Source of the DNA: a virus
Lineage: Duplodnaviria > Heunggongvirae > Uroviricota > Caudoviricetes
Reading direction: 5' to 3' (one strand)
Virus record (IMG/VR): IMGVR_UViG_2531839476_000015
Location: 1-49,036 of that record
DNA length: 49,036 nt
Shown here: one piece after another, positions 4,146-25,481 of the stretch
Layout: each line of letters starts with the position of its first letter
Numbering within the stretch: position 1 is the first letter of the stretch
The notes under the pieces: model-generated
Seen by the model: the letters and a program-made list of their open reading frames with translations, nothing else
What the model was told of the DNA's origin: nothing
The model's database searches: none
Position numbers and translations under genes: made by a program

Positions 4146-4361
4146 TCACCGTTCCTTAAAGACGCCGTTTAACATACCGATTGCCAGACTTAAGTGAGTC
4201 GGTGTGAATCCCATCAGCGTTACCGTTTCGCGGTGCTTCTTCAGTACGCTACGGCAAATGTCATCGACGTTTTTATCCGGAAACTGCTGTCTGGCTTTTT
4301 TGATTTCATAATTAGCCTGACGGGCAATGCTGCGAAGGGCGTTATTATGTTCTATTGTCAT
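4146..4361 (-). CDS. Hypothetical protein (71 aa)
   Basis: ORF track 4146..4499; internal Met MTIEHNNALRS begins right after the upstream gene stop (4369); no recognisable motif. Confidence 0.4.
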   Translation of the reverse strand: MTIEHNNALRSIARQANYEIKKARQQFPDKNVDDICRSVLKKHRETVTLMGFTPTHLSLAIGMLNGVFKER

Positions 4362-19073: not shown

Positions 19074-19500
19074 TATCCGGCAGGTTCTTGAGCGCTGGGG
19101 TGCATGGGCGGCAAATAACTATGAGGATGTTACATGGTCGCCCATTGCTGCCGGATTTAAGGGACTGATCCCCGAAAAAGTAAAATCACGTCCACAGTGT
19201 TGTGACGATGACGCGATGATTATATGCGGGTGTATGGCTCGCCTTAACAGGAACAACAGCGATCTGCATGACTTGCTGGTTGATTATTACGTGTTGGGGG
19301 AGACGTTCATGGCGCTGGCACGGAAACATGGGTGCTCTGACACCTGTATAGGTAAACGCCTTCACAAAGCGGAGGGGATTGTTGAAGGCATGCTGATGAT
19401 GCTGGGAGTGAGGCTTGAGATGGATCGGTATGTTGAGCGTGAATTGCCGGGAGGGAGAACCTCTGTATTTTATCAGCGAAAAAATAGTTTACGATCGTAA
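19066..19500 (+). CDS. Q: Late antiterminator Q (phage 21 / 933W type)
   Basis: ORF track 19018..19500; start placed at [24 protein letters not shown]...[17 protein letters not shown], which matches the Q of Stx phages as recalled. Confidence 0.85.
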
Positions 19501-19750
19501 AAATCTGCATATCATGATAAGAGTGGTTACATTGCCACGCTGCTTAACCCGCCGATGCGCGGGTTTTTTTGTACCCAGAATCCTGTGAGCTATACGGAAA
19601 GTACACAGAAAGGAAGGTGCGACCACAATTAATAACAAAATCTTAAAAATTGCACATGGCACTATTAGTTTTCTAAATATTGTGTATTTTTTGTATTGCA
19701 GGATGACCCTGTAACGAAGTTTGCGTAACAGCATTTTGCTCTACGAGTTT

Positions 19751-19779
19751 GCCAGCCTCCCCCAGTGGCTGGCTTTTTT
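19751..19779 (+). terminator. tR'-like intrinsic terminator (GCCAGCC-n9-GGCTGGC then T6)
   Basis: 7-bp stem and T tract about 250 nt downstream of Q; an earlier hairpin-T7 lies at about 19547-19570; coordinates approximate. Confidence 0.5.
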
Positions 19780-19782
19780 ATG

Positions 19783-19911
19783 TCCGTAGCGTCAAAGCAG
19801 CAATGTCGCTGGGGCGTCGTGCAATTGGCGTTGAGCTGGACACCGGACGTTTTGAGCAGACCGCAAGGGATGTACGGAATTTAATCAGAAAGAGAGAGTG
19901 ATATTGCTGAA
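19783..19911 (+). pseudogene. 3' remnant of a DNA methyltransferase gene (...SLGRRAIGVELDTGRFEQTARDVRNLIRKRE)
   Basis: Short frame ending with the LGRR.IG.E motif typical of the C-terminus of DNA methyltransferases; no corresponding N-terminal part upstream. Confidence 0.4.
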
Positions 19912-19941
19912 TTTATTCTGTAACGTTATCATTATGTTATC

Positions 19942-20017
19942 GGCCCTTTAGCTCAGTGGTGAGAGCGAGTGACTCATAATCGCCAGGTCGCTGGTTCAAA
20001 TCCAGCAAGGGCCACCA
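19942..20017 (+). tRNA. ileZ: tRNA with CAU anticodon (Ile2-lysidine or Met type; ileZ-like of Stx phages)
   Basis: Hand fold: 7-bp acceptor GGCCCTT/AAGGGCC, D arm GCTC/GAGC, anticodon loop CTCATAA, T arm GCTGG-TTCAAAT-CCAGC, discriminator A and encoded CCA. Confidence 0.8.
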
Positions 20018-20018
20018 A

Positions 20019-20084
20019 CCGCCACTAGCTCATCAGGAAAGAACGTCACCCTGTGCGAGATTCGGAGTCCCCGGTGGCGGTCCA
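20019..20084 (+). other. tRNA-like remnant (acceptor-like ends CCGCCAC/GTGGCGG and encoded CCA, but no foldable D or T arm; only 66 nt)
   Basis: Sits where Stx phages carry a second tRNA (argN); I could not fold a canonical cloverleaf by hand. Confidence 0.3.
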
Positions 20085-20097
20085 TTATCAGCATCAT

Positions 20098-20174
20098 GCG
20101 TTGTTAGCTCAGTCGGACAGAGCAATTGCCTTCTAAGCAATCGGTCAGTGGTTAGACTCCACTACAACGCGCCA
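20098..20174 (+). tRNA. argO: tRNA-Arg (anticodon UCU; argO-like)
   Basis: Hand fold: acceptor GCGTTGT/ACAACGC, D arm GCTC/GAGC, anticodon stem ATTGC/GCAAT with loop CTTCTAA, T arm AGTGG-TTAGACT-CCACT, encoded CCA. Confidence 0.85.
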
Positions 20175-20187
20175 CACTTATTTTCCA

Positions 20188-20211
20188 GGCTCGCTTCGGC
20201 GGGCCTTTTTT
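20188..20211 (+). terminator. Intrinsic terminator after tRNA cluster (stem with UUCG tetraloop then T6)
   Basis: GGCTCGC-ttcg-GCGGGCC followed by TTTTTT; coordinates approximate. Confidence 0.5.
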
Positions 20212-20343
20212 GTATCTGCGCCACGCCCGGCGCATATCAACCACAGAGCCTTTCGGGGGTGAGCTTACGGAGTGGTCAGTGTGACTTTCTCTGTGGGCAG
20301 ATCGCTCCCGGGCGTTGGCTCACCCACCCAAAGGAACGTCACG

Positions 20344-20775
20344 ATGTTTGGAATCTTCAAAAAGAAAACCCGCAGAGCGGCAGCGGAAATTAAAAAGTTT
20401 GAGAAACGCGATCTGGCACAGGCGGTGATTAACGCTGCATACCTGGTGGCCTATGCAGATGGTGAATGCGAGGCATCCGAGAAAGCGAAGATCGAACAGG
20501 TCTTACGTAATCAGCCTGCGTTGTCTGCGTTTACCTCGGAAATTAATGCGATTAGCGCAACCATTATCGGTCAGCTGGATACCAATTTTAAAATTGGTCG
20601 TCGTGCCGCGTTACGCGAGATTGAGGATGTGAAACACGATACGCGTGAAGCGGAAGATGTGCTGGATGTGGCGGTGGCCATTGCGGAGGCAGACGGCGAA
20701 ATTGAGCCGGAAGAGCGCAAGGTGCTGGAAGAGATTGCCGGTGTTCTGGGTCTTCGTCTGGAGAATCACCTGTGA
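20344..20775 (+). CDS. TerB-like (tellurite-resistance TerB domain) protein in the slot occupied by stx in Stx phages
   Basis: ORF track 20272..20775, start at internal Met MFGIFKKK; paired acidic helices (YADGECEASEKAKIEQV ... AEADGEIEPEERKVLEEIAGVLGL) as in TerB; assignment by recall. Confidence 0.65.
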   Translation: MFGIFKKKTRRAAAEIKKFEKRDLAQAVINAAYLVAYADGECEASEKAKIEQVLRNQPALSAFTSEINAISATIIGQLDTNFKIGRRAALREIEDVKHDTREAEDVLDVAVAIAEADGEIEPEERKVLEEIAGVLGLRLENHL

Positions 20776-20939
20776 CGGTAAAACTGCGCCTGGCTGTGGC
20801 TGCACTCCTGCTGTTTCTGGTGGTGATGGTGGATTTCACCACCAGAATCATGTCGGTGCTGGCGGATGGGGTGCTGGTCTGCGGCATTGTGGTATTGCTG
20901 TGGCCGGTGATAAAAAGAAACAGCCTGCATAATGCTTGA
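20772..20939 (+). CDS. Small hydrophobic membrane protein (55 aa), GTG start overlapping the TerB-like stop
   Basis: My translation VTVKLRLAVAALLLFLVVMVDFTTRIMSVLADGVLVCGIVVLLWPVIKRNSLHNA; two predicted TM segments; GTGA overlap with upstream stop. Confidence 0.4.
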   Translation: MTVKLRLAVAALLLFLVVMVDFTTRIMSVLADGVLVCGIVVLLWPVIKRNSLHNA

Positions 20940-21120
20940 TTTTTTTGTTTGCTGTTTATTAAAAACACTTCTGCATGGTGAATCCCCCTGTGCGGAGGGG
21001 CGACTGGTGTAGGTAGCATTTATTATGTTATAGGCAAGCCGACGCGGGTTCAGTGACACCGGCTGAATTCACCGGGAGGCACCCGGCACCATGCAAGAAA
21101 AAGAATGTGCATGCAAACAT

Positions 21121-21145
21121 GCCCCTCTCCGGAGGGGCATTTTTT
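21121..21145 (+). terminator. Intrinsic terminator (GCCCCTC-tccg-GAGGGGC then T6)
   Basis: Perfect 7-bp GC-rich stem plus T tract downstream of the TerB-like cargo; a second hairpin follows at about 21159-21176. Confidence 0.55.
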
Positions 21146-21360
21146 ATGGGTAAAAAATGCCCGAATGGGTTCGGGCAATAGCATGAGATACTGATATTGT
21201 TGTGTTGTTATCGTGTGGATTTTAACCAGGGTTTATCAGGCTGCGCAACTGCGTGGCCTTTTTTCATTTCTTGGGCTGTAGTCCCCGTGTGTCATTCAGG
21301 CTTCCGGACTACAGCCCACTCCATATCTGATTTAATACACTATCCCGGCCGGGAGGAATA

Positions 21361-23214
21361 ATGACATTTAAACATTATGATGTTGTCAGGGCGGCGTCGC
21401 CGTCAGACCTTGCGGAAAAGCTGACACACAAACTGAAAGAGGGCTGGCAGCCGTTTGGTAGTCCGGTGGCCATAACCCCTTATACCCTGATGCAGGCGAT
21501 TACAGCAGAAGGTGATGTGGTGGTCAGTGGTGCAACTGAGCCGGATTGGTACTACGTCATCGTACTGGCCGGGCAGTCCAATGCCATGGCTTACGGTGAA
21601 GGGCTTCCGCTGCCGGATTCATACGATGCTCCGGATCCGCGCATTAAACAGCTGGCGCGCCGCAGTACAGTTACGCCGGGTGGGGCTGCCTGCAGATATA
21701 ACGATATTATTCCGGCCGACCACTGCCTGCATGATGTGCAGGATATGAGTGCGCTGAATCATCCGAAGGCAGACCTGAGCAAAGGGCAGTACGGCTGTGT
21801 CGGCCAGGGCTTACATATTGCCAAAAAACTGCTCCCGTATATCCCGAATAACGCGGGGATCCTGCTGGTACCATGCTGTCGTGGTGGTTCTGCATTCACC
21901 CAGGGCGCTGAGGGGACATTCAGTGCGGACACGGGGGCCAGCCAGGATTCGGCACGCTGGGGTGTGGGTAAACCGTTATATCAGGACCTGATTGCGCGCA
22001 CTAAAGCTGCATTACAGAAGAACCCGAAAAATGTGTTGCTGGCGGTGTGCTGGATGCAGGGAGAGTTTGACATGAGCGCCGCCACCCACGCACAGCAACC
22101 TGCGCTGTTTACAGCCATGCTGACACGGTTTCGTGCTGACCTCTCCGTGTTTAACGCGCAGTGCCATGGTGGCAGTGCTGCAGATGTGCCGTGGATTTGT
22201 GGTGACACGACGTATTACTGGAAAAATACATACGCTACCCAGTACGACACCGTGTACGGCGGGTATAAAAACAGGGAGAGTGAGGGCGTTTATTTTGTGC
22301 CCTTCATGACAGACGGTAACGGCGTCAATACCGCCACTAACGCGCCGGCAGAAGATCCGGATATTCCGGCATCAGGATATTACGGTGCGGCATCGAGAAC
22401 GAATGGAAACCAGGTATCATCAAACCGCCCGACACATTTCAGTTCATGGGCGCGCAGGAGCATTATTCCGGATCGTCTGGCAACCGCTATTCTGAACGCA
22501 GCCGGGCGCACCTCCGCCTTCATCAGTGGTAAGGCACCGGAAATCAAACCCTCGCCCGGCGGCAACACGCCATCGGGTCCGTCTGCAGATACGTCCGTTC
22601 GCACAATCTCCCTGCTGCCGGCAGCCGGAGAGGCTGCTGCGCAGGGCTGGAGCATTAAGGATGGCGGAATTCAGTTGTCAGATGGTGTATTTAAGATCAC
22701 CAAGCAGAGCAATAAAACCTGGTCCCTGACGCATCCGGTGGATGACGCAATTACCCTGCTGACACAGGGCGGCAGACTGAACTGTAAGTTCCGCCTGTCA
22801 GGCGCACTGACCAACAATCAGTTCGGGCTGGGGATTTATCTGTATACGGATGCTCCCGTTCCTGATGGTGTGGCGATGACGGGTACCGGTAATCCGTTCC
22901 TGATGTCGTACTTCACTCAGACCACTGACGGCAGAGTGAATCTGATGCATCACAGGAAAGCCGGAAACACGAAGCTGGGGGAGTTCGGCGATTACGGTAA
23001 CGACTGGCAGACGCTGGAGCTGGTGTTCACCGCCGGCAGTGCCACGGTTACTCCGAAACTGAATGGAGTGGCTGGCCCGGCATTCCAGGTTATAAAAGAC
23101 AGTCTGACACTGGGACTGAATGCGCTGACGCTGACGGATGTTACAAAAAATGCAGCGTATGGCGTTGAGATAGAAAGTCTGGTGCTGGAGATAAATGCAC
23201 CGGCATCATCATAA
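21361..23214 (+). CDS. nanS-p: NanS-p-like sialate O-acetylesterase (SGNH/GQSN hydrolase with C-terminal extension)
   Basis: 617 aa; [18 protein letters not shown] block typical of the 9-O-acetyl sialic acid esterases found in Stx prophage late regions. Confidence 0.8.
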
Positions 23215-23363
23215 AAAGTGAGCCAGTCAAATGGAAGGTATCGTTAAACTCACCGGTAGTGTCAGTGGGTCGTCTGAGACGCCTGCATGAGTTATCAGAG
23301 CCATCAGTAGTTAACTGGTGGCTTTTTTATTGTTGTCAGCTTCCGGATAACGGGAGACGGGGT

Positions 23364-23579
23364 ATGTACCAGATGGAAAAAATCACAACGGGTGTGTCAT
23401 ACACCACGTCAGCGGTGGGGACGGGCTACTGGTTCCTGCAGCTGCTGGACAAAGTCTCTCCGTCCCAGTGGGTGGCAATAGGTGTGCTGGGGAGTCTGCT
23501 GTTTGGCCTGCTGACGTATCTGACAAACCTTTATTTCAAGATTAAAGAAGATAAGCGTAAGGCGGCGCGGGGAGAGTAA
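23364..23579 (+). CDS. S: Holin (933W/DLP12 EssD type) with dual-start motif MYQMEK
   Basis: 71 aa [71 protein letters not shown]; two Met codons three codons apart suggest holin/antiholin pair. Confidence 0.88.
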
Positions 23580-24512: not shown

Positions 24513-24785
24513 GCAGAATATTTTGCTGAAAAATGACGTTGGCCAGCGCGGGCGGATAACACGAAATCCTGCGAACTGGCAAAATGTAAGTGAATAAAGT
24601 TAGGCAGATTATTTCACGCAGAGGCACCGTAATGGTGCCTTTGTCATTTCTGCGCTTCGCACAAGCGTAAATAAACCAAAGAACCTTTCAGGATGAGCCC
24701 TGGTGGATAACCGGCAGTGGTCTGGTTAACCCTCTTTGGGCTGGTTATTCCTGTGCGCAGGGTTCATCACTAAAAGGAATCAACC

Positions 24786-25481
24786 ATGAAAGAGATGATT
24801 TCTGTCGATCATGAAATATCCATGAGTAGTCTGGATTTTCTGAATAACATTATTAATCCAGCCCGGGCAGAAGCCGGAGAAGTCCCTCATGAACCGCGTA
24901 AGTTTCTTGCAAAAATTGAGGATGAGCTAGAGCTTGATGGAACCGGAAAAAAATTCCGGTTAAACAATAACCAAACAAGAACGGCATACTATGATCTGGA
25001 TTTTGACCAGATGATGCTCGTTGGCATGAGGGAGTCAAAGGCCGTTCGTCGTTCTGTGCTGGCAAGACTCAAAGCGATGCATGGTATTCAGATCCCCCGG
25101 ACTTTACCTGAGGCGTTGCGATTTGCGGCAAAACTGGCTGAACAGAAAGCAGTGCTGGAAAATCAACTGGCAATAGCAGCGCCGAAGGCTGAATTTGTTG
25201 ATAACTATGTTGAAGCATCTGGTCTGATGGGATTCCGGGAAGTTGCTAAGTTACTCGGTATCAAAGAAACCGATTTCCGGCTGTTTTTGTTGGAGAACGG
25301 AATAATGTATCGCCTCGCTGGAAAAATGACGCCTTACTCGCATCACCTGGATGCGGGGCGGTTTAGCGTGAAAACGGGCGAGGCGGGCAATGGTCATGCT
25401 TTTACGCAGGTTAAATTCACCCCAAAAGGTGTTCAGTGGATTGCTGGTCTGCTTGCTGCATGGAGAGCTACCGCAGCATGA
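24786..25481 (+). CDS. ant: Antirepressor (AntA-like N-terminus with KilAC C-terminal domain) embedded in the lysis cassette
   Basis: 231 aa; C-terminal half paralogous to the 17549..18277 protein; the same placement between R and Rz occurs in Stx phages. Confidence 0.75.
   Translation: MKEMISVDHEISMSSLDFLNNIINPARAEAGEVPHEPRKFLAKIEDELELDGTGKKFRLNNNQTRTAYYDLDFDQMMLVGMRESKAVRRSVLARLKAMHGIQIPRTLPEALRFAAKLAEQKAVLENQLAIAAPKAEFVDNYVEASGLMGFREVAKLLGIKETDFRLFLLENGIMYRLAGKMTPYSHHLDAGRFSVKTGEAGNGHAFTQVKFTPKGVQWIAGLLAAWRATAA

Follow-up and report, generated by a model that had tools for sequence, protein, structure and literature searches.

The gene for a TerB-like protein that lies, in the phage genome studied here, at the position taken by stx2AB in Stx2a phages is preceded by a leader that is, as judged in silico from its covariation, a conserved pseudoknotted RNA in which a long helix (P3 together with an anti-SD strand) pairs the Shine–Dalgarno (SD) sequence. 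The leader is unannotated, and we regard it as a candidate for a new family of cis-regulatory RNAs. It is the leader that is the new result, the cassette downstream of it being ordinary and known. The DNA that we analyzed (the window) is a stretch of 49,036 nucleotides, positions 1 to 49,036 of IMG/VR record IMGVR_UViG_2531839476_000015, and all features described below are on its plus strand unless otherwise indicated. We lean toward reading the region of interest, including the models for the leader and the proteins that are set out below, as the Q-dependent late leader, with the slot for accessory genes ("morons"), of a lambdoid prophage of the 933W/Stx2a type that lacks stx and carries a 732-bp cassette in its place.

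The region begins with a gene (19066–19500, ATG start) for an antiterminator Q of the Stx2a-phage type (Pfam Phage_antitermQ, PF06530, E = 9.5e-52), whose product is identical at 142 of 144 positions (99%) to Q of the Stx2a phage Lyz12581Vzw. A consensus scan revealed a pR′-like promoter match (19488–19515) just upstream of a tR′-like intrinsic terminator (19546–19572; hairpin 19546–19565 followed by a T run). A second terminator-like element (19750–19778), consisting of the hairpin GCCAGCC/GGCTGGC (19750–19772) and a T run, was read by eye from the sequence because its 9-nt loop exceeds the limit of the scan. It coincides with the start of a pseudogene (19749–19901), the C-terminal remnant of a DNA methylase, which PGAP marks as incomplete in a 99.8% identical genome and which is also annotated in Stx phages. 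Next come a gene for tRNA-Ile2 (CAT) at 19942–20017 (ARAGORN; Rfam tRNA, 68.3 bits; PGAP tRNA-Ile) and a gene for tRNA-Arg (TCT) at 20098–20174 (ARAGORN and Rfam); ARAGORN labels the CAT anticodon of the former "Met." The 80 nt between them (20018–20097), in which neither ARAGORN nor Rfam called a tRNA, align with the tRNA-Arg (TCG) interval of the Stx2a phage L002 and represent the decayed middle member of the Stx-phage tRNA trio. A third terminator found by the scan, T0 (20187–20211; hairpin 20187–20206 plus a T run), abuts the leader, and in L001 its hairpin is preserved by a compensatory change of C-G to T-A. Farther downstream is a gene (21361–23214) for a NanS-p-type sialate O-acetylesterase (DUF1737, SASA, and DUF6645), annotated as yjhS/NanS in related phages. 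Thus, the Stx-phage-type late regulatory region that the initial annotation had proposed is borne out, with Q, tRNA genes, terminators, and esterase where it had placed them.

The boundaries of the cassette coincide with those of the toxin genes. The left flank (19400–20222) is 88.8% identical to that of an Stx2a phage; homology stops at about 20222 and restarts at about 20955, and the 732 bp in between replace stx2AB with both junctions identical. Between the same junctions lie stx2AB (1369 bp) in the Stx2a phage and only 80 bp in the stx-less phage phi296. A tblastn search of the whole window with Stx2A and Stx2B, as suggested in the initial annotation, which had found no toxin genes by eye, returned no homologue (all matches E > 2). 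The window shares with the stx2AB moron of Stx2a phages its Q (99%), its tRNAs, both junctions, a pair of small RNA genes of the STnc100/AsxR type, and the NanS-p gene; it differs in its cargo and in that no leader lies upstream of stx2 (model R1, described below, scores at most 14 bits in L002). The suggestion that the pair of cargo genes sits in the toxin slot is therefore correct. As to whether these are genes of an invariant and ubiquitous backbone, the pair is indeed ubiquitous, but the slot itself is truly variable, holding the TerB pair, stx2AB, nothing, or the gene for a periplasmic binding protein. The cargo is not unusual: the pair is the most frequent occupant of this slot and has already been named by PGAP and PHROGs.

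The two hairpins downstream of the cargo, previously interpreted as its terminators, proved to be the terminators of two known small RNA genes, which are convergent and lie directly 3′ of the cargo. One is an STnc100-family gene (20944–21151; terminator 21119–21140) that matches Rfam RF02076 with 155.5 bits (gathering score 47) over model positions 1 to 206 of 206; from about 20955 onward this right-hand flank is common to Stx2 phages. The other, on the minus strand (21152–21213; terminator 21177–21158), is a full-length gene for the anti-GcvB RNA AgvB (RF02702, 96.5 bits; gathering score 56), in which the motif CACAACA, a mimic of the GcvB seed, is found in the reverse complement of 21190–21213. 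The arrangement does not differ from that of the AgvB/AsxR and STnc100/PasD RNAs, a convergent pair that follows the cargo (PMC4104026; Zhu, Shabalina and Storz 2026 preprint) and that was described by Tree et al. 2014 (PMC4104026); Hfq binding and antagonism of GcvB have been established for the AgvB copies of Sakai (PMC4104026).

The first cargo gene (20344–20775) encodes a TciA-like protein of 143 residues with the TerB fold. As had been supposed, it contains a TerB domain (PF05099, 60.2 bits over residues 26–138, against a cut-off of 24.4); it also belongs to PHROG 632 (E = 1.7e-69) and matches KP-TerB (2JXU) with E = 4.4e-8 (phmmer). Its AF2 model is all-helical (pLDDT 89.2), and the best PDB matches of the model in Foldseek were 2H5N (probability 1.0) and 2OU3 (0.9), with TM scores of just 0.45–0.55. 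Across 28 sequences with identities as low as 28%, five acidic residues (D23, E46, E66, D117, and E124) never vary, the N-terminus (MFGxFKKK) is conserved, and a dN/dS of 0.01–0.09 indicates strong purifying selection. With the TerB of the ter cluster (terZABCDEF; KP-TerB 2JXU, PF05099) the protein has in common the domain, the fold, and twin acidic "DG...E" motifs, whereas its context is that of a phage and its partner is not TerC but a membrane protein of 55 residues.

That partner is encoded by the second cargo gene (20772–20939), whose GTG start codon overlaps the TerB stop codon (GTGA). As the initial annotation had described, it has two hydrophobic stretches (maximum Kyte–Doolittle mean over 17 residues, 2.62); it is, in addition, a TciB-like member of DUF3927 (PF13064, 59.2 bits, cut-off 25; PHROG 1470, E = 5e-29). 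Membership in a Pfam family, a conserved adjacency to TerB, and a dN/dS of 0.3–0.5 make it almost certain, from comparative evidence, that the small open reading frame is real. The DUF3927 gene abuts or overlaps that for TerB in E. coli, Pantoea, Klebsiella, Serratia, P1, an Erwinia jumbo phage, and N4-like phages, across three Q families TerB is always accompanied by a small membrane protein, and natural TerB–DUF3927 fusion proteins exist. In Pseudomonas phages the partner of TerB is a different, single-TM protein.

The closest described relative of the pair is the tciABC operon of P1. Its TciA shares 42% identity with the TerB-like protein, and its TciB belongs to DUF3927. In both cases the two genes adjoin or overlap each other (ATGA in P1, GTGA here) and have a tRNA-Ile2 (CAT) gene next to them. 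The P1 genes, however, belong to the early ban operon under C1 repression and lack a structured leader, whereas the pair studied here is in a presumably Q-dependent late region; also, tciC is present only in P1, there being no open reading frame here between 20939 and the start of STnc100 at 20944. The operon is non-essential in a CRISPRi screen of P1 (PMC10695390) and is missing in about half of one P1-like subgroup (PMC9603915). Our search of the literature on DUF3927, TciA/TciB, TerB together with prophages, and late-region ant yielded mentions at the level of annotation and no functional test of a phage TerB or TciB.

The cassette is present in 1157 of 5426 complete E. coli genomes, or about one fifth, at up to 10 places per genome, and many of these copies are probably in defective prophages; a profile search of genome contigs with a narrower protein alignment recovered only nine loci. 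The module also sits in the early region of a P2-like prophage, in P1 within the early ban operon that C1 controls, and in many virulent phages. Its presence in early operons and in virulent phages weakens the earlier proposal of a function in lysis or release and favors a role within the phage cycle proper.

Together with the two protein genes, the leader (copy 1) makes up the self-contained 732-bp cassette. It extends for about 125 nt from T0 to the ATG of the TerB gene (20218–20343) and scores 142 bits with our covariance model, R1. Covariation supports four nested helices, one of which pairs the SD sequence, and two pseudoknot helices. In copy 1 these are P1 (20218–22/20229–33), PK1 (20224–28 with 20310–14), P2 (20243–48 with 20289–94), P4 (20274–78/20282–86), P3 (20257–65 with 20317–25), and the helix formed by the anti-SD strand (20249–53) with the SD sequence (20330–34). 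When the sequences were simply aligned with MAFFT, 88.3% of cells were paired, compared with 33–52% in controls in which the partner strand was slid, and 16 pairs were changed on both sides, a result equaled in one of 500 shuffles. When the alignment was based on the model, the nested helices were 92.5% paired (28–51% in slid controls), and 16 of 24 pairs were changed on both sides (0 of 500 shuffles). The two pseudoknot helices, which were outside the covariance model used for alignment, were 89.3% paired (34–55% in slid controls), and both sides had changed in 7 of their 11 pairs (0 of 500 shuffles). All these shuffle controls overstate the significance, because the sequences are related and much of the variation is in few clades. 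The nested structure produced by RNAalifold from the raw alignment was poor because two of the helices are pseudoknotted. By itself, copy 1 folds with an RNAfold z-score of −3.58.

Independent compensatory changes are seen in three helices. P1 occurs as GCGCC/GGCGC, GCACC/GGTGC, GCGTC/GACGC, CGCTT/AAGCG, and ACATC/GATGT; PK1 as CGCCC/GGGCG, TGCCC/GGGCA, GTGCC/GGCAC, CGCAC/GTGCG, and TCTCAC/GTGAGA; and P2 as ACAGAG/CTCTGT, GCAGAG/CTCTGC, GTAGAG/CTCTAC, CTCAGAG/CTCTGAG, AAAGA/TCTTT, and CGATAAC/GTTATCG. Moreover, the leader is two to three times better conserved than the synonymous positions of the adjacent gene (p-distances of 0.13, 0.22, and 0.33 versus 0.44, 0.69, and 0.72).

The probability that the SD sequence is unpaired was 0.00–0.03 in most variants of the leader, and in some variants P3 and the anti-SD strand combine into a single helix, almost perfect and about 18 bp long. 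In the O157-type leader, to which copy 1 belongs, the SD sequence is about 40–60% open in the nested ensemble, and its occlusion may thus be incomplete. The minimum-free-energy structure of copy 1 contains an alternative helix, termed "open," of GAGCC (20246–50) with GGCTC (20317–21); the ant-type copies show covariation in it (GAACC/GGTTC), but it is disrupted in L176, and the L375 and L352 variants lack it. A further helix, P5 (20268–76 with 20300–08), a rival of P4, seemed conserved by eye, copy 2 included. We rejected it, since it was 72% paired as against 59–64% in some slid controls and its number of pairs changed on both sides was reached in 58 of 500 shuffles.

A second copy of the leader (24640–24788), preceded by a terminator-like hairpin (24624–24639), scores 73.3 bits with R1 (E of about 1e-18) and ends at the ATG of an antirepressor-like open reading frame (24786–25481) in the lysis cassette. 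Its helices are P1 (24652–56/24664–68), PK1 (24658–62 with 24754–58), P2 (24678–82 with 24733–37), P3 (24692–700 with 24760–68), and anti-SD (24684–88) with SD (24773–77). The element is located upstream of ant in 276 phage records, VT2-Sakai among them, and in most Stx phages. Altogether, related leaders precede at least six unrelated genes, those for TerB, an NMT1-like binding protein, two types of antirepressor, and two unknown proteins, and a hairpin with a T run lies directly upstream in 33 of 42 distinct contexts. A leader is also found in a virulent jumbo phage that has no Q, and hence the element is not tied to Q antitermination as such. With nhmmer and the covariance model, no leader was found upstream of tciA in P1 or upstream of its N4-like, Pseudomonas, Vibrio, and P2-like relatives, nor was one found in the DLP12 and Qin prophages of E. 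coli K-12. Because the P1, N4-like, Pseudomonas, and P2-like genes do without it, the leader is not needed for TerB function. It is more conserved than the proteins encoded downstream, being shared by TerB clades of 40–45% identity.

We propose that expression of the pair would be gated twice: three intrinsic terminators would be read through by Q-modified RNA polymerase, and the leader would then hold the ribosome-binding site closed until something opens it, perhaps a ligand or a trans-acting factor, or else processing of the RNA or the kinetics of its folding. The view of the initial annotation, that cargo in this position is transcribed from pR′ only once Q has acted, is compatible with these three upstream terminators. 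Translational coupling would produce both proteins in a fixed ratio, as a single working unit. The basic N-terminus of TerB and its membrane partner would bring the acidic, probably cation-binding domain to the inner face of the cytoplasmic membrane, where it may act in phage development, for example by stabilizing the energized membrane or by excluding competing phages or colicins. The cassette would not, on this model, act as a tellurite-resistance gene.

A different possibility, to which we attach a limited probability, is that the pair serves in lysogenic conversion or defense, with the resting prophage expressing it, through leakage or from a weak promoter at the T run, against superinfecting phages or pore-forming colicins, in the manner of the plasmid ter cluster with its Phi and PacB phenotypes. 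Passages quoted in PMC7371120 and PMC9603915 connect the ter cluster, TerB included, with resistance to colicins and inhibition of phages; strong purifying selection keeps the cassette intact at up to 10 places per genome, many of them probably in defective prophages; and the T run with TAT/AAT directly before P1 could serve as a weak −10 box. Yet three terminators and an SD-sequestering leader stand upstream, strictly virulent phages carry the same module, and TerB alone does not amount to a ter system. A scan from T0 to the ATG found no sigma-70 promoter with at least 9 of 12 consensus matches, and candidate −35/−10 pairs spanning P1 were weak and not conserved across variants. Nor did the defense profiles of PADLOC 2.0 identify a known system, the TerB protein giving only a partial match of 14.5 bits and the DUF3927 protein none.

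Returning to the leader as a regulator of translation, a more far-reaching and speculative idea, which we think improbable as it stands, is that it belongs to a hitherto undescribed class of sensing RNAs and times the translation of accessory genes in lambdoid phages, among them the late-region ant of most Stx phages, the TerB/TciB pair, and the gene for a secreted binding protein; the signal would be a protein of phage or host, a small molecule, a small RNA, or the elongation behavior of the polymerase. Like the SAM-II and preQ1-II riboswitches and the lambda cIII thermometer, the leader has a compact covarying fold, pseudoknots, and an occluded SD sequence. It differs from such SD-sequestering leaders in matching no Rfam family, in its position just after an intrinsic terminator, and in its downstream genes, which have no common pathway. 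Of the features by which riboswitches are recognized, then, it displays a structured domain supported by covariation and a platform that overlaps the SD sequence, whereas the shared pathway is missing.

The leader could instead be a processing element, either a self-cleaving ribozyme resembling that of HDV or a substrate of RNase III or RNase P, in which a cut would free the mRNA from the tRNAs or read-through transcript upstream of it and so open the SD sequence. The order of the helix strands (P2-5′, P3-5′, hairpin P4, P2-3′, P3-3′) is that of a nested double pseudoknot, the leader is often directly 3′ of tRNA genes, and the helix of about 18 bp seen in some variants points in the same direction. 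We nonetheless consider such processing rather unlikely: Rfam 15, its ribozyme families included, matched neither copy at E ≤ 1, P1 and PK1 would lie upstream of the putative cleavage site and be superfluous for an HDV-type fold, and neither a P1.1 helix nor a catalytic C could be assigned. Less probable again is that the conservation reflects a feature of the DNA, such as a recombination junction for the exchange of cargo or a promoter or operator, with covariation that stems from a few related lineages. The leader does mark the left edge of interchangeable cargo, is conserved beyond its proteins, and falls into few clades, but P1, PK1, and P2 display independent compensatory variants, and the slid-partner controls, in which relatedness is kept, fall to 28–55% paired. 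Finally, that the cassette is a determinant of tellurite resistance is suggested by its database name only, a name given by homology (the P1 annotation says "by homology"), and is highly improbable, as terZ, terA, terC, terD, terE, and terF are all missing from the neighboring open reading frames and from the annotation.

What the cargo shows is that genes are generally exchanged at the stx position, which in E. coli prophages is by default filled with an uncharacterized and strongly conserved two-protein membrane module. The "terminator plus leader" unit, as left-hand homology, and the STnc100-type small RNA gene, as right-hand homology, explain the swapping of cargo. The leader, a compact, covarying, pseudoknotted RNA present in no database, lies before the ribosome-binding sites of six or more accessory genes that are unrelated to each other; in most Stx1 and Stx2 phages, one of them is the antirepressor gene of the lysis cassette. 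If the leader controls translation, it would be a shared switch for the accessory genes of phages in major pathogens and a direct handle on their timing. And were it a sensing RNA, one and the same element would link the derepression of the prophage, and with it the release of toxin, to a cellular signal throughout the Stx phages.

From the ORF list, a tRNA scan and reading of the sequence, we drew the gene order, all on the plus strand, from the nin genes to the NanS-p esterase gene. The genes for NinG (18277-18882) and NinH (18879-19073) are followed by Q (19066-19500, ATG start), a promoter-like site (19488-19515), a hairpin with a T run (19546-19565), a second such hairpin recognized by sequence reading (19750-19778), a methylase remnant (19749-19901), tRNA-Ile2(CAT) (19942-20017), tRNA-Arg(TCT) (20098-20174), a third terminator hairpin (20187-20206), the TerB-like ORF (20344-20775), a 55-aa ORF whose GTG start overlaps the TerB stop as GTGA (20772-20939), and the gene for the 617-aa esterase (21361-23214). 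All protein assignments in the region, those of Q, TerB, the 55-aa protein and the esterase included, exceeded curated Pfam cut-offs. Q was identical at 142 of 144 positions to Q of an Stx2a-converting phage, and a search for StxA/StxB-like ORFs revealed no Stx homologue anywhere in the window, as the initial annotation had judged by eye. Its anatomy of the region is therefore confirmed. Between the two tRNA genes lie 80 nt (20018-20097) that align with tRNA-Arg(TCG) of Stx phages and in which an acceptor-like CCGCCAC...GTGGCGG is still visible; neither ARAGORN nor Rfam called a tRNA there, and the sequence looks like a decayed third tRNA.

Megablast matched 377 phage records, mostly Stx1- and Stx2-converting phages. 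The Stx-phage records matched the left third of the query and one right-hand piece, with stx2AB in between. We fixed the junctions by pairwise blastn: homology to an Stx2a phage and to the stx-less phage phi296 stops at 20209-20222 and restarts at 20955-20956. The intervening DNA measures 1369 bp (stx2AB) in the Stx2a phage, 80 bp in phi296 and 732 bp in the window. By the evidence of these alignments, the region is the stx slot; the identity of the cassette and its junctions are firm. The phage PPyecE_EH1910 lacks tRNAs, carries a full-length methylase together with a toxin-antitoxin pair, and differs in its Q. It is homologous to the window from 20187 on, and therefore the cassette moves jointly with its upstream terminator hairpin.

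The two hairpin terminators that had been placed after the small ORF are real, but Rfam identifies them as the convergent terminators of two sRNA genes: a full-length STnc100-family sRNA (20944-21151, plus strand) and a full-length AgvB (21152-21213, minus strand), both far above the gathering score. Reading of the AgvB sequence revealed the CACAACA mimic of GcvB targets. This sRNA pair 3' of the cassette is already known: convergent sRNA genes have been described directly 3' of the site that takes up accessory genes beyond PR' (Tree et al. 2014, PMC4104026), and a 2026 preprint counts TerB among the conserved neighbours of related sRNAs in prophages. A 2026 preprint also places PasA/PasC-type sRNAs, for which Rfam holds no model, in the esterase-holin gap of related prophages; the corresponding gap in the window is 23215-23364 (plus strand).

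The gene pair is neither rare nor unannotated. The 734-bp cassette alone was found at 4341 places in 1157 of 5426 complete E. coli genomes (median per genome 4, maximum 10); these genomes include EDL933 and further O157:H7 strains. PGAP names the products "tellurite resistance TerB family protein" and "DUF3927 family protein," PHROGs classes the genes as "tellurite resistance" and "TciB-like" accessory genes, and tciA/tciB of phage P1 are homologous (42% identity). A tblastn search found TerB-like genes in 131 phage records, among them phages of Pseudomonas and Vibrio, N4-like phages of Salmonella and E. coli, and jumbo phages of Erwinia (about 70% identity). Wherever it occurs in lambdoid prophages of E. 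coli, Pantoea or Klebsiella, the pair has an antiterminator gene on one side and the lysis genes on the other; the antiterminators belong to three different Pfam families and the neighbours are variable (a methylase, a ParE/HTH pair, type I R-M genes, and NanS-p present or not). The pair sits in the early region of a Serratia P2-like prophage and in the C1-controlled ban operon of P1. Thus, it is a portable two-gene unit and not a backbone gene. The initial annotation had weighed a ubiquitous, invariable backbone gene as the alternative to cargo; the pair is indeed very common, but it is not part of a backbone. Because it is so common and already named, the cargo by itself is ordinary.

We also observed that tciA/tciB adjoins tRNA genes in three unrelated phage types: P1 (locus L004, 3001-3776), the Erwinia jumbo phage ChrisDB (locus L007, 886-3277) and the window (19942-20939). 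The neighbour is tRNA-Ile2(CAT) in P1 and the window, and tRNA-Cys with others in ChrisDB, where the leader of the cassette begins directly after tRNA-Cys. In the Serratia P2-like prophage (locus L022, 5001-5608), TerB is 91% identical to that of the window and the upstream sequence is wholly different and lacks the leader, which puts a point of recombination at the start codon or close to it.

The TerB-like protein matched KP-TerB (2JXU) by sequence, and its confident, all-helical predicted model (pLDDT 89) had TerB-superfamily structures as its best PDB neighbours. Across 28 TerB homologues, the most distant with 28% identity, the residues that never varied were mostly acidic (D23, E46, E66, D117 and E124) and the MFGxFKKK N-terminus was conserved. 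The pairing of the genes is obligate: in every enterobacterial example a small hydrophobic ORF overlaps TerB or begins 0-4 nt after it. Two Pseudomonas phages have a different single-TM protein in this place, and in one Vibrio phage we saw no small hydrophobic partner ORF after TerB. Two database proteins, P0004 (197 aa) and P0066 (170 aa), are TerB-DUF3927 fusions through a frameshift at the overlapping stop and start; whether sequencing errors or genuine variants, they tie the two genes together. Values of dN/dS were 0.01-0.09 for TerB and 0.3-0.5 for the small ORF. The TerB matches, model and conserved residues, the small membrane partner, the fusions and the selection speak for a membrane-anchored unit of two components. 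PADLOC did not recognize the pair as a defence system. In P1, genes of this type were non-essential in a CRISPRi screen (PMC10695390), and one subgroup of P1-like elements lacks them in about half of its members (PMC9603915).

Among E. coli copies the 137 nt from the terminator to the TerB ATG are conserved, and the conservation extends to Pantoea, to Klebsiella and to a virulent jumbo phage of Erwinia. Copy 1 of this leader (20218-20343) matched no Rfam family at E<=1 and folded better than 200 of 200 shuffles (z = -3.58). Protein-guided searches, a viral-contig scan with a conserved 19-mer and a metagenome-contig scan with a clade-specific 17-mer yielded 102 unique leaders, or 41 at 96% or lower identity. 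Their variants preserve pairing in a hairpin, P1 (GCGCC/GGCGC, GCACC/GGTGC, GCGTC/GACGC, CGCTT/AAGCG, ACATC/GATGT); in PK1, between the P1 loop and a partner about 85 nt downstream (CGCCC/GGGCG, TGCCC/GGGCA, GTGCC/GGCAC, CGCAC/GTGCG, TCTCAC/GTGAGA); in P2 (ACAGAG/CTCTGT, GCAGAG/CTCTGC, GTAGAG/CTCTAC, CTCAGAG/CTCTGAG, AAAGA/TCTTT, CGATAAC/GTTATCG); and in P3 (GGGTGAGCC/GGCTCACCC, GAGTGAACC/GGTTCACTC, GGGTGAGTC/GACTCACCC, GATGAGCCC/GGGTTCATC), whose anti-SD extension pairs CCTTT with the AAAGG Shine-Dalgarno sequence. P4 is a small hairpin; P3 is crossed by P2, and both are crossed by PK1.

In a plain MAFFT alignment of 26 sequences, 88.3% of cells were paired versus 33-52% with slid partners, and 16 of 35 pairs had changed on both sides (1/500 shuffles; 3-6 in slid controls). 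From this alignment we built a covariance model, R1, that holds nested helices only (P1, P3 with its anti-SD extension, and P4). Among its 48 aligned hits the nested helices were 92.5% paired (versus 28-51%) and the two pseudoknot helices 89.3% (versus 34-55%), with 7 of 11 pseudoknot pairs changed on both sides (0/500); since R1 lacks these helices, their pairing could not come from model fitting. Covariation thus supports a predicted fold that takes in the Shine-Dalgarno sequence. In the nested ensemble its probability of being unpaired was 0.00-0.03 in most variants; in the O157-type leader, copy 1 included, it was about half open. The leader differed from relatives at 13%, 22% and 33% of positions, and TerB synonymous sites in the same pairs at 44%, 69% and 72%; comparative sequence data show that both genes and the leader are under purifying selection. 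Alternatively, the leader may be a processing element (a ribozyme, or a substrate of RNase III or RNase P).

The leader is not confined to TerB. A second copy in the window (24640-24788, plus strand; R1 73 bits, E about 1e-18; no Rfam match) sits 3' of a hairpin (24624-24639) and ends at the ATG of an antirepressor-like (KilAC) gene, ant (24786-25481), between the endolysin gene and downstream lysis (spanin) genes. In 276 phage records this copy or a close relative lies 5' of ant; VT2-Sakai and the majority of Stx1 and Stx2 phages are among them. Leader copies also precede TerB clades only 40-45% identical to that of the window, an antirepressor of the BRO/AntA type, two proteins (246 and 252 aa) that are unrelated, and, in the same slot in place of TerB, a roughly 280-aa secreted NMT1-like/phosphonate-type solute-binding protein with holin and endolysin directly after (lambdoid prophages on metagenome and viral contigs L375, 79-1043, L404, L436 and L448). 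The leader was absent upstream of stx2, from the P1, N4-like, Pseudomonas and P2-like tciA genes, and from K-12 DLP12 and Qin. A GC-rich hairpin with a T run lies directly 5' of the leader in 33 of 42 distinct contexts, and several of the remaining nine have an imperfect version. A weak promoter with the T run as its -10 box may be an alternative.

Other RNA elements were observed in the window. Upstream of NanS-p (21238-21360, plus strand), a terminator-like hairpin with a T run (21238-21259) precedes a long perfect hairpin of GGGCTGTAGTCC (21273-21284) with GGACTACAGCCC (21306-21317), 5' of the NanS-p Shine-Dalgarno sequence. The logic of terminator then structured leader is that of the TerB leader; the sequence is unrelated to it and gave no match to R1. 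Rfam matches to c4-a1b1, isrK and C4 antisense RNA (16551-16749, plus strand) lie just 5' of two genes of antirepressor type (about 16.8-18.3 kb); together they make up a c4-ant immunity module in the style of P1/P7, in the same lambdoid prophage that has a late-region ant. On the minus strand, 7342-7400 matches the lambda cIII thermoregulator element over its full length (Rfam RF01804, 88.5 bits).

We propose that the cassette would be transcribed mainly when Q-modified polymerase passes the three terminators, that the leader would then hold translation low until its fold is opened, and that TciA and TciB would be co-produced and would work at the inner membrane while the phage develops. The unrelated genes downstream of the leader argue against a pathway-specific metabolite as the opener, and the copy in a virulent jumbo phage speaks against any Q-linked mechanism. 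Taken whole, from the cassette and leader through Q read-through and leader-limited translation to joint membrane action, we give the proposal slightly better than even chances; most doubt attaches to the leader-limited translation and membrane-action steps.

Finally, the leader is an unannotated, structured element shared by TerB, the late antirepressor gene of Stx phages and other accessory genes, and it is best classed as a candidate new family within the structured 5' leaders that occlude the Shine-Dalgarno sequence.
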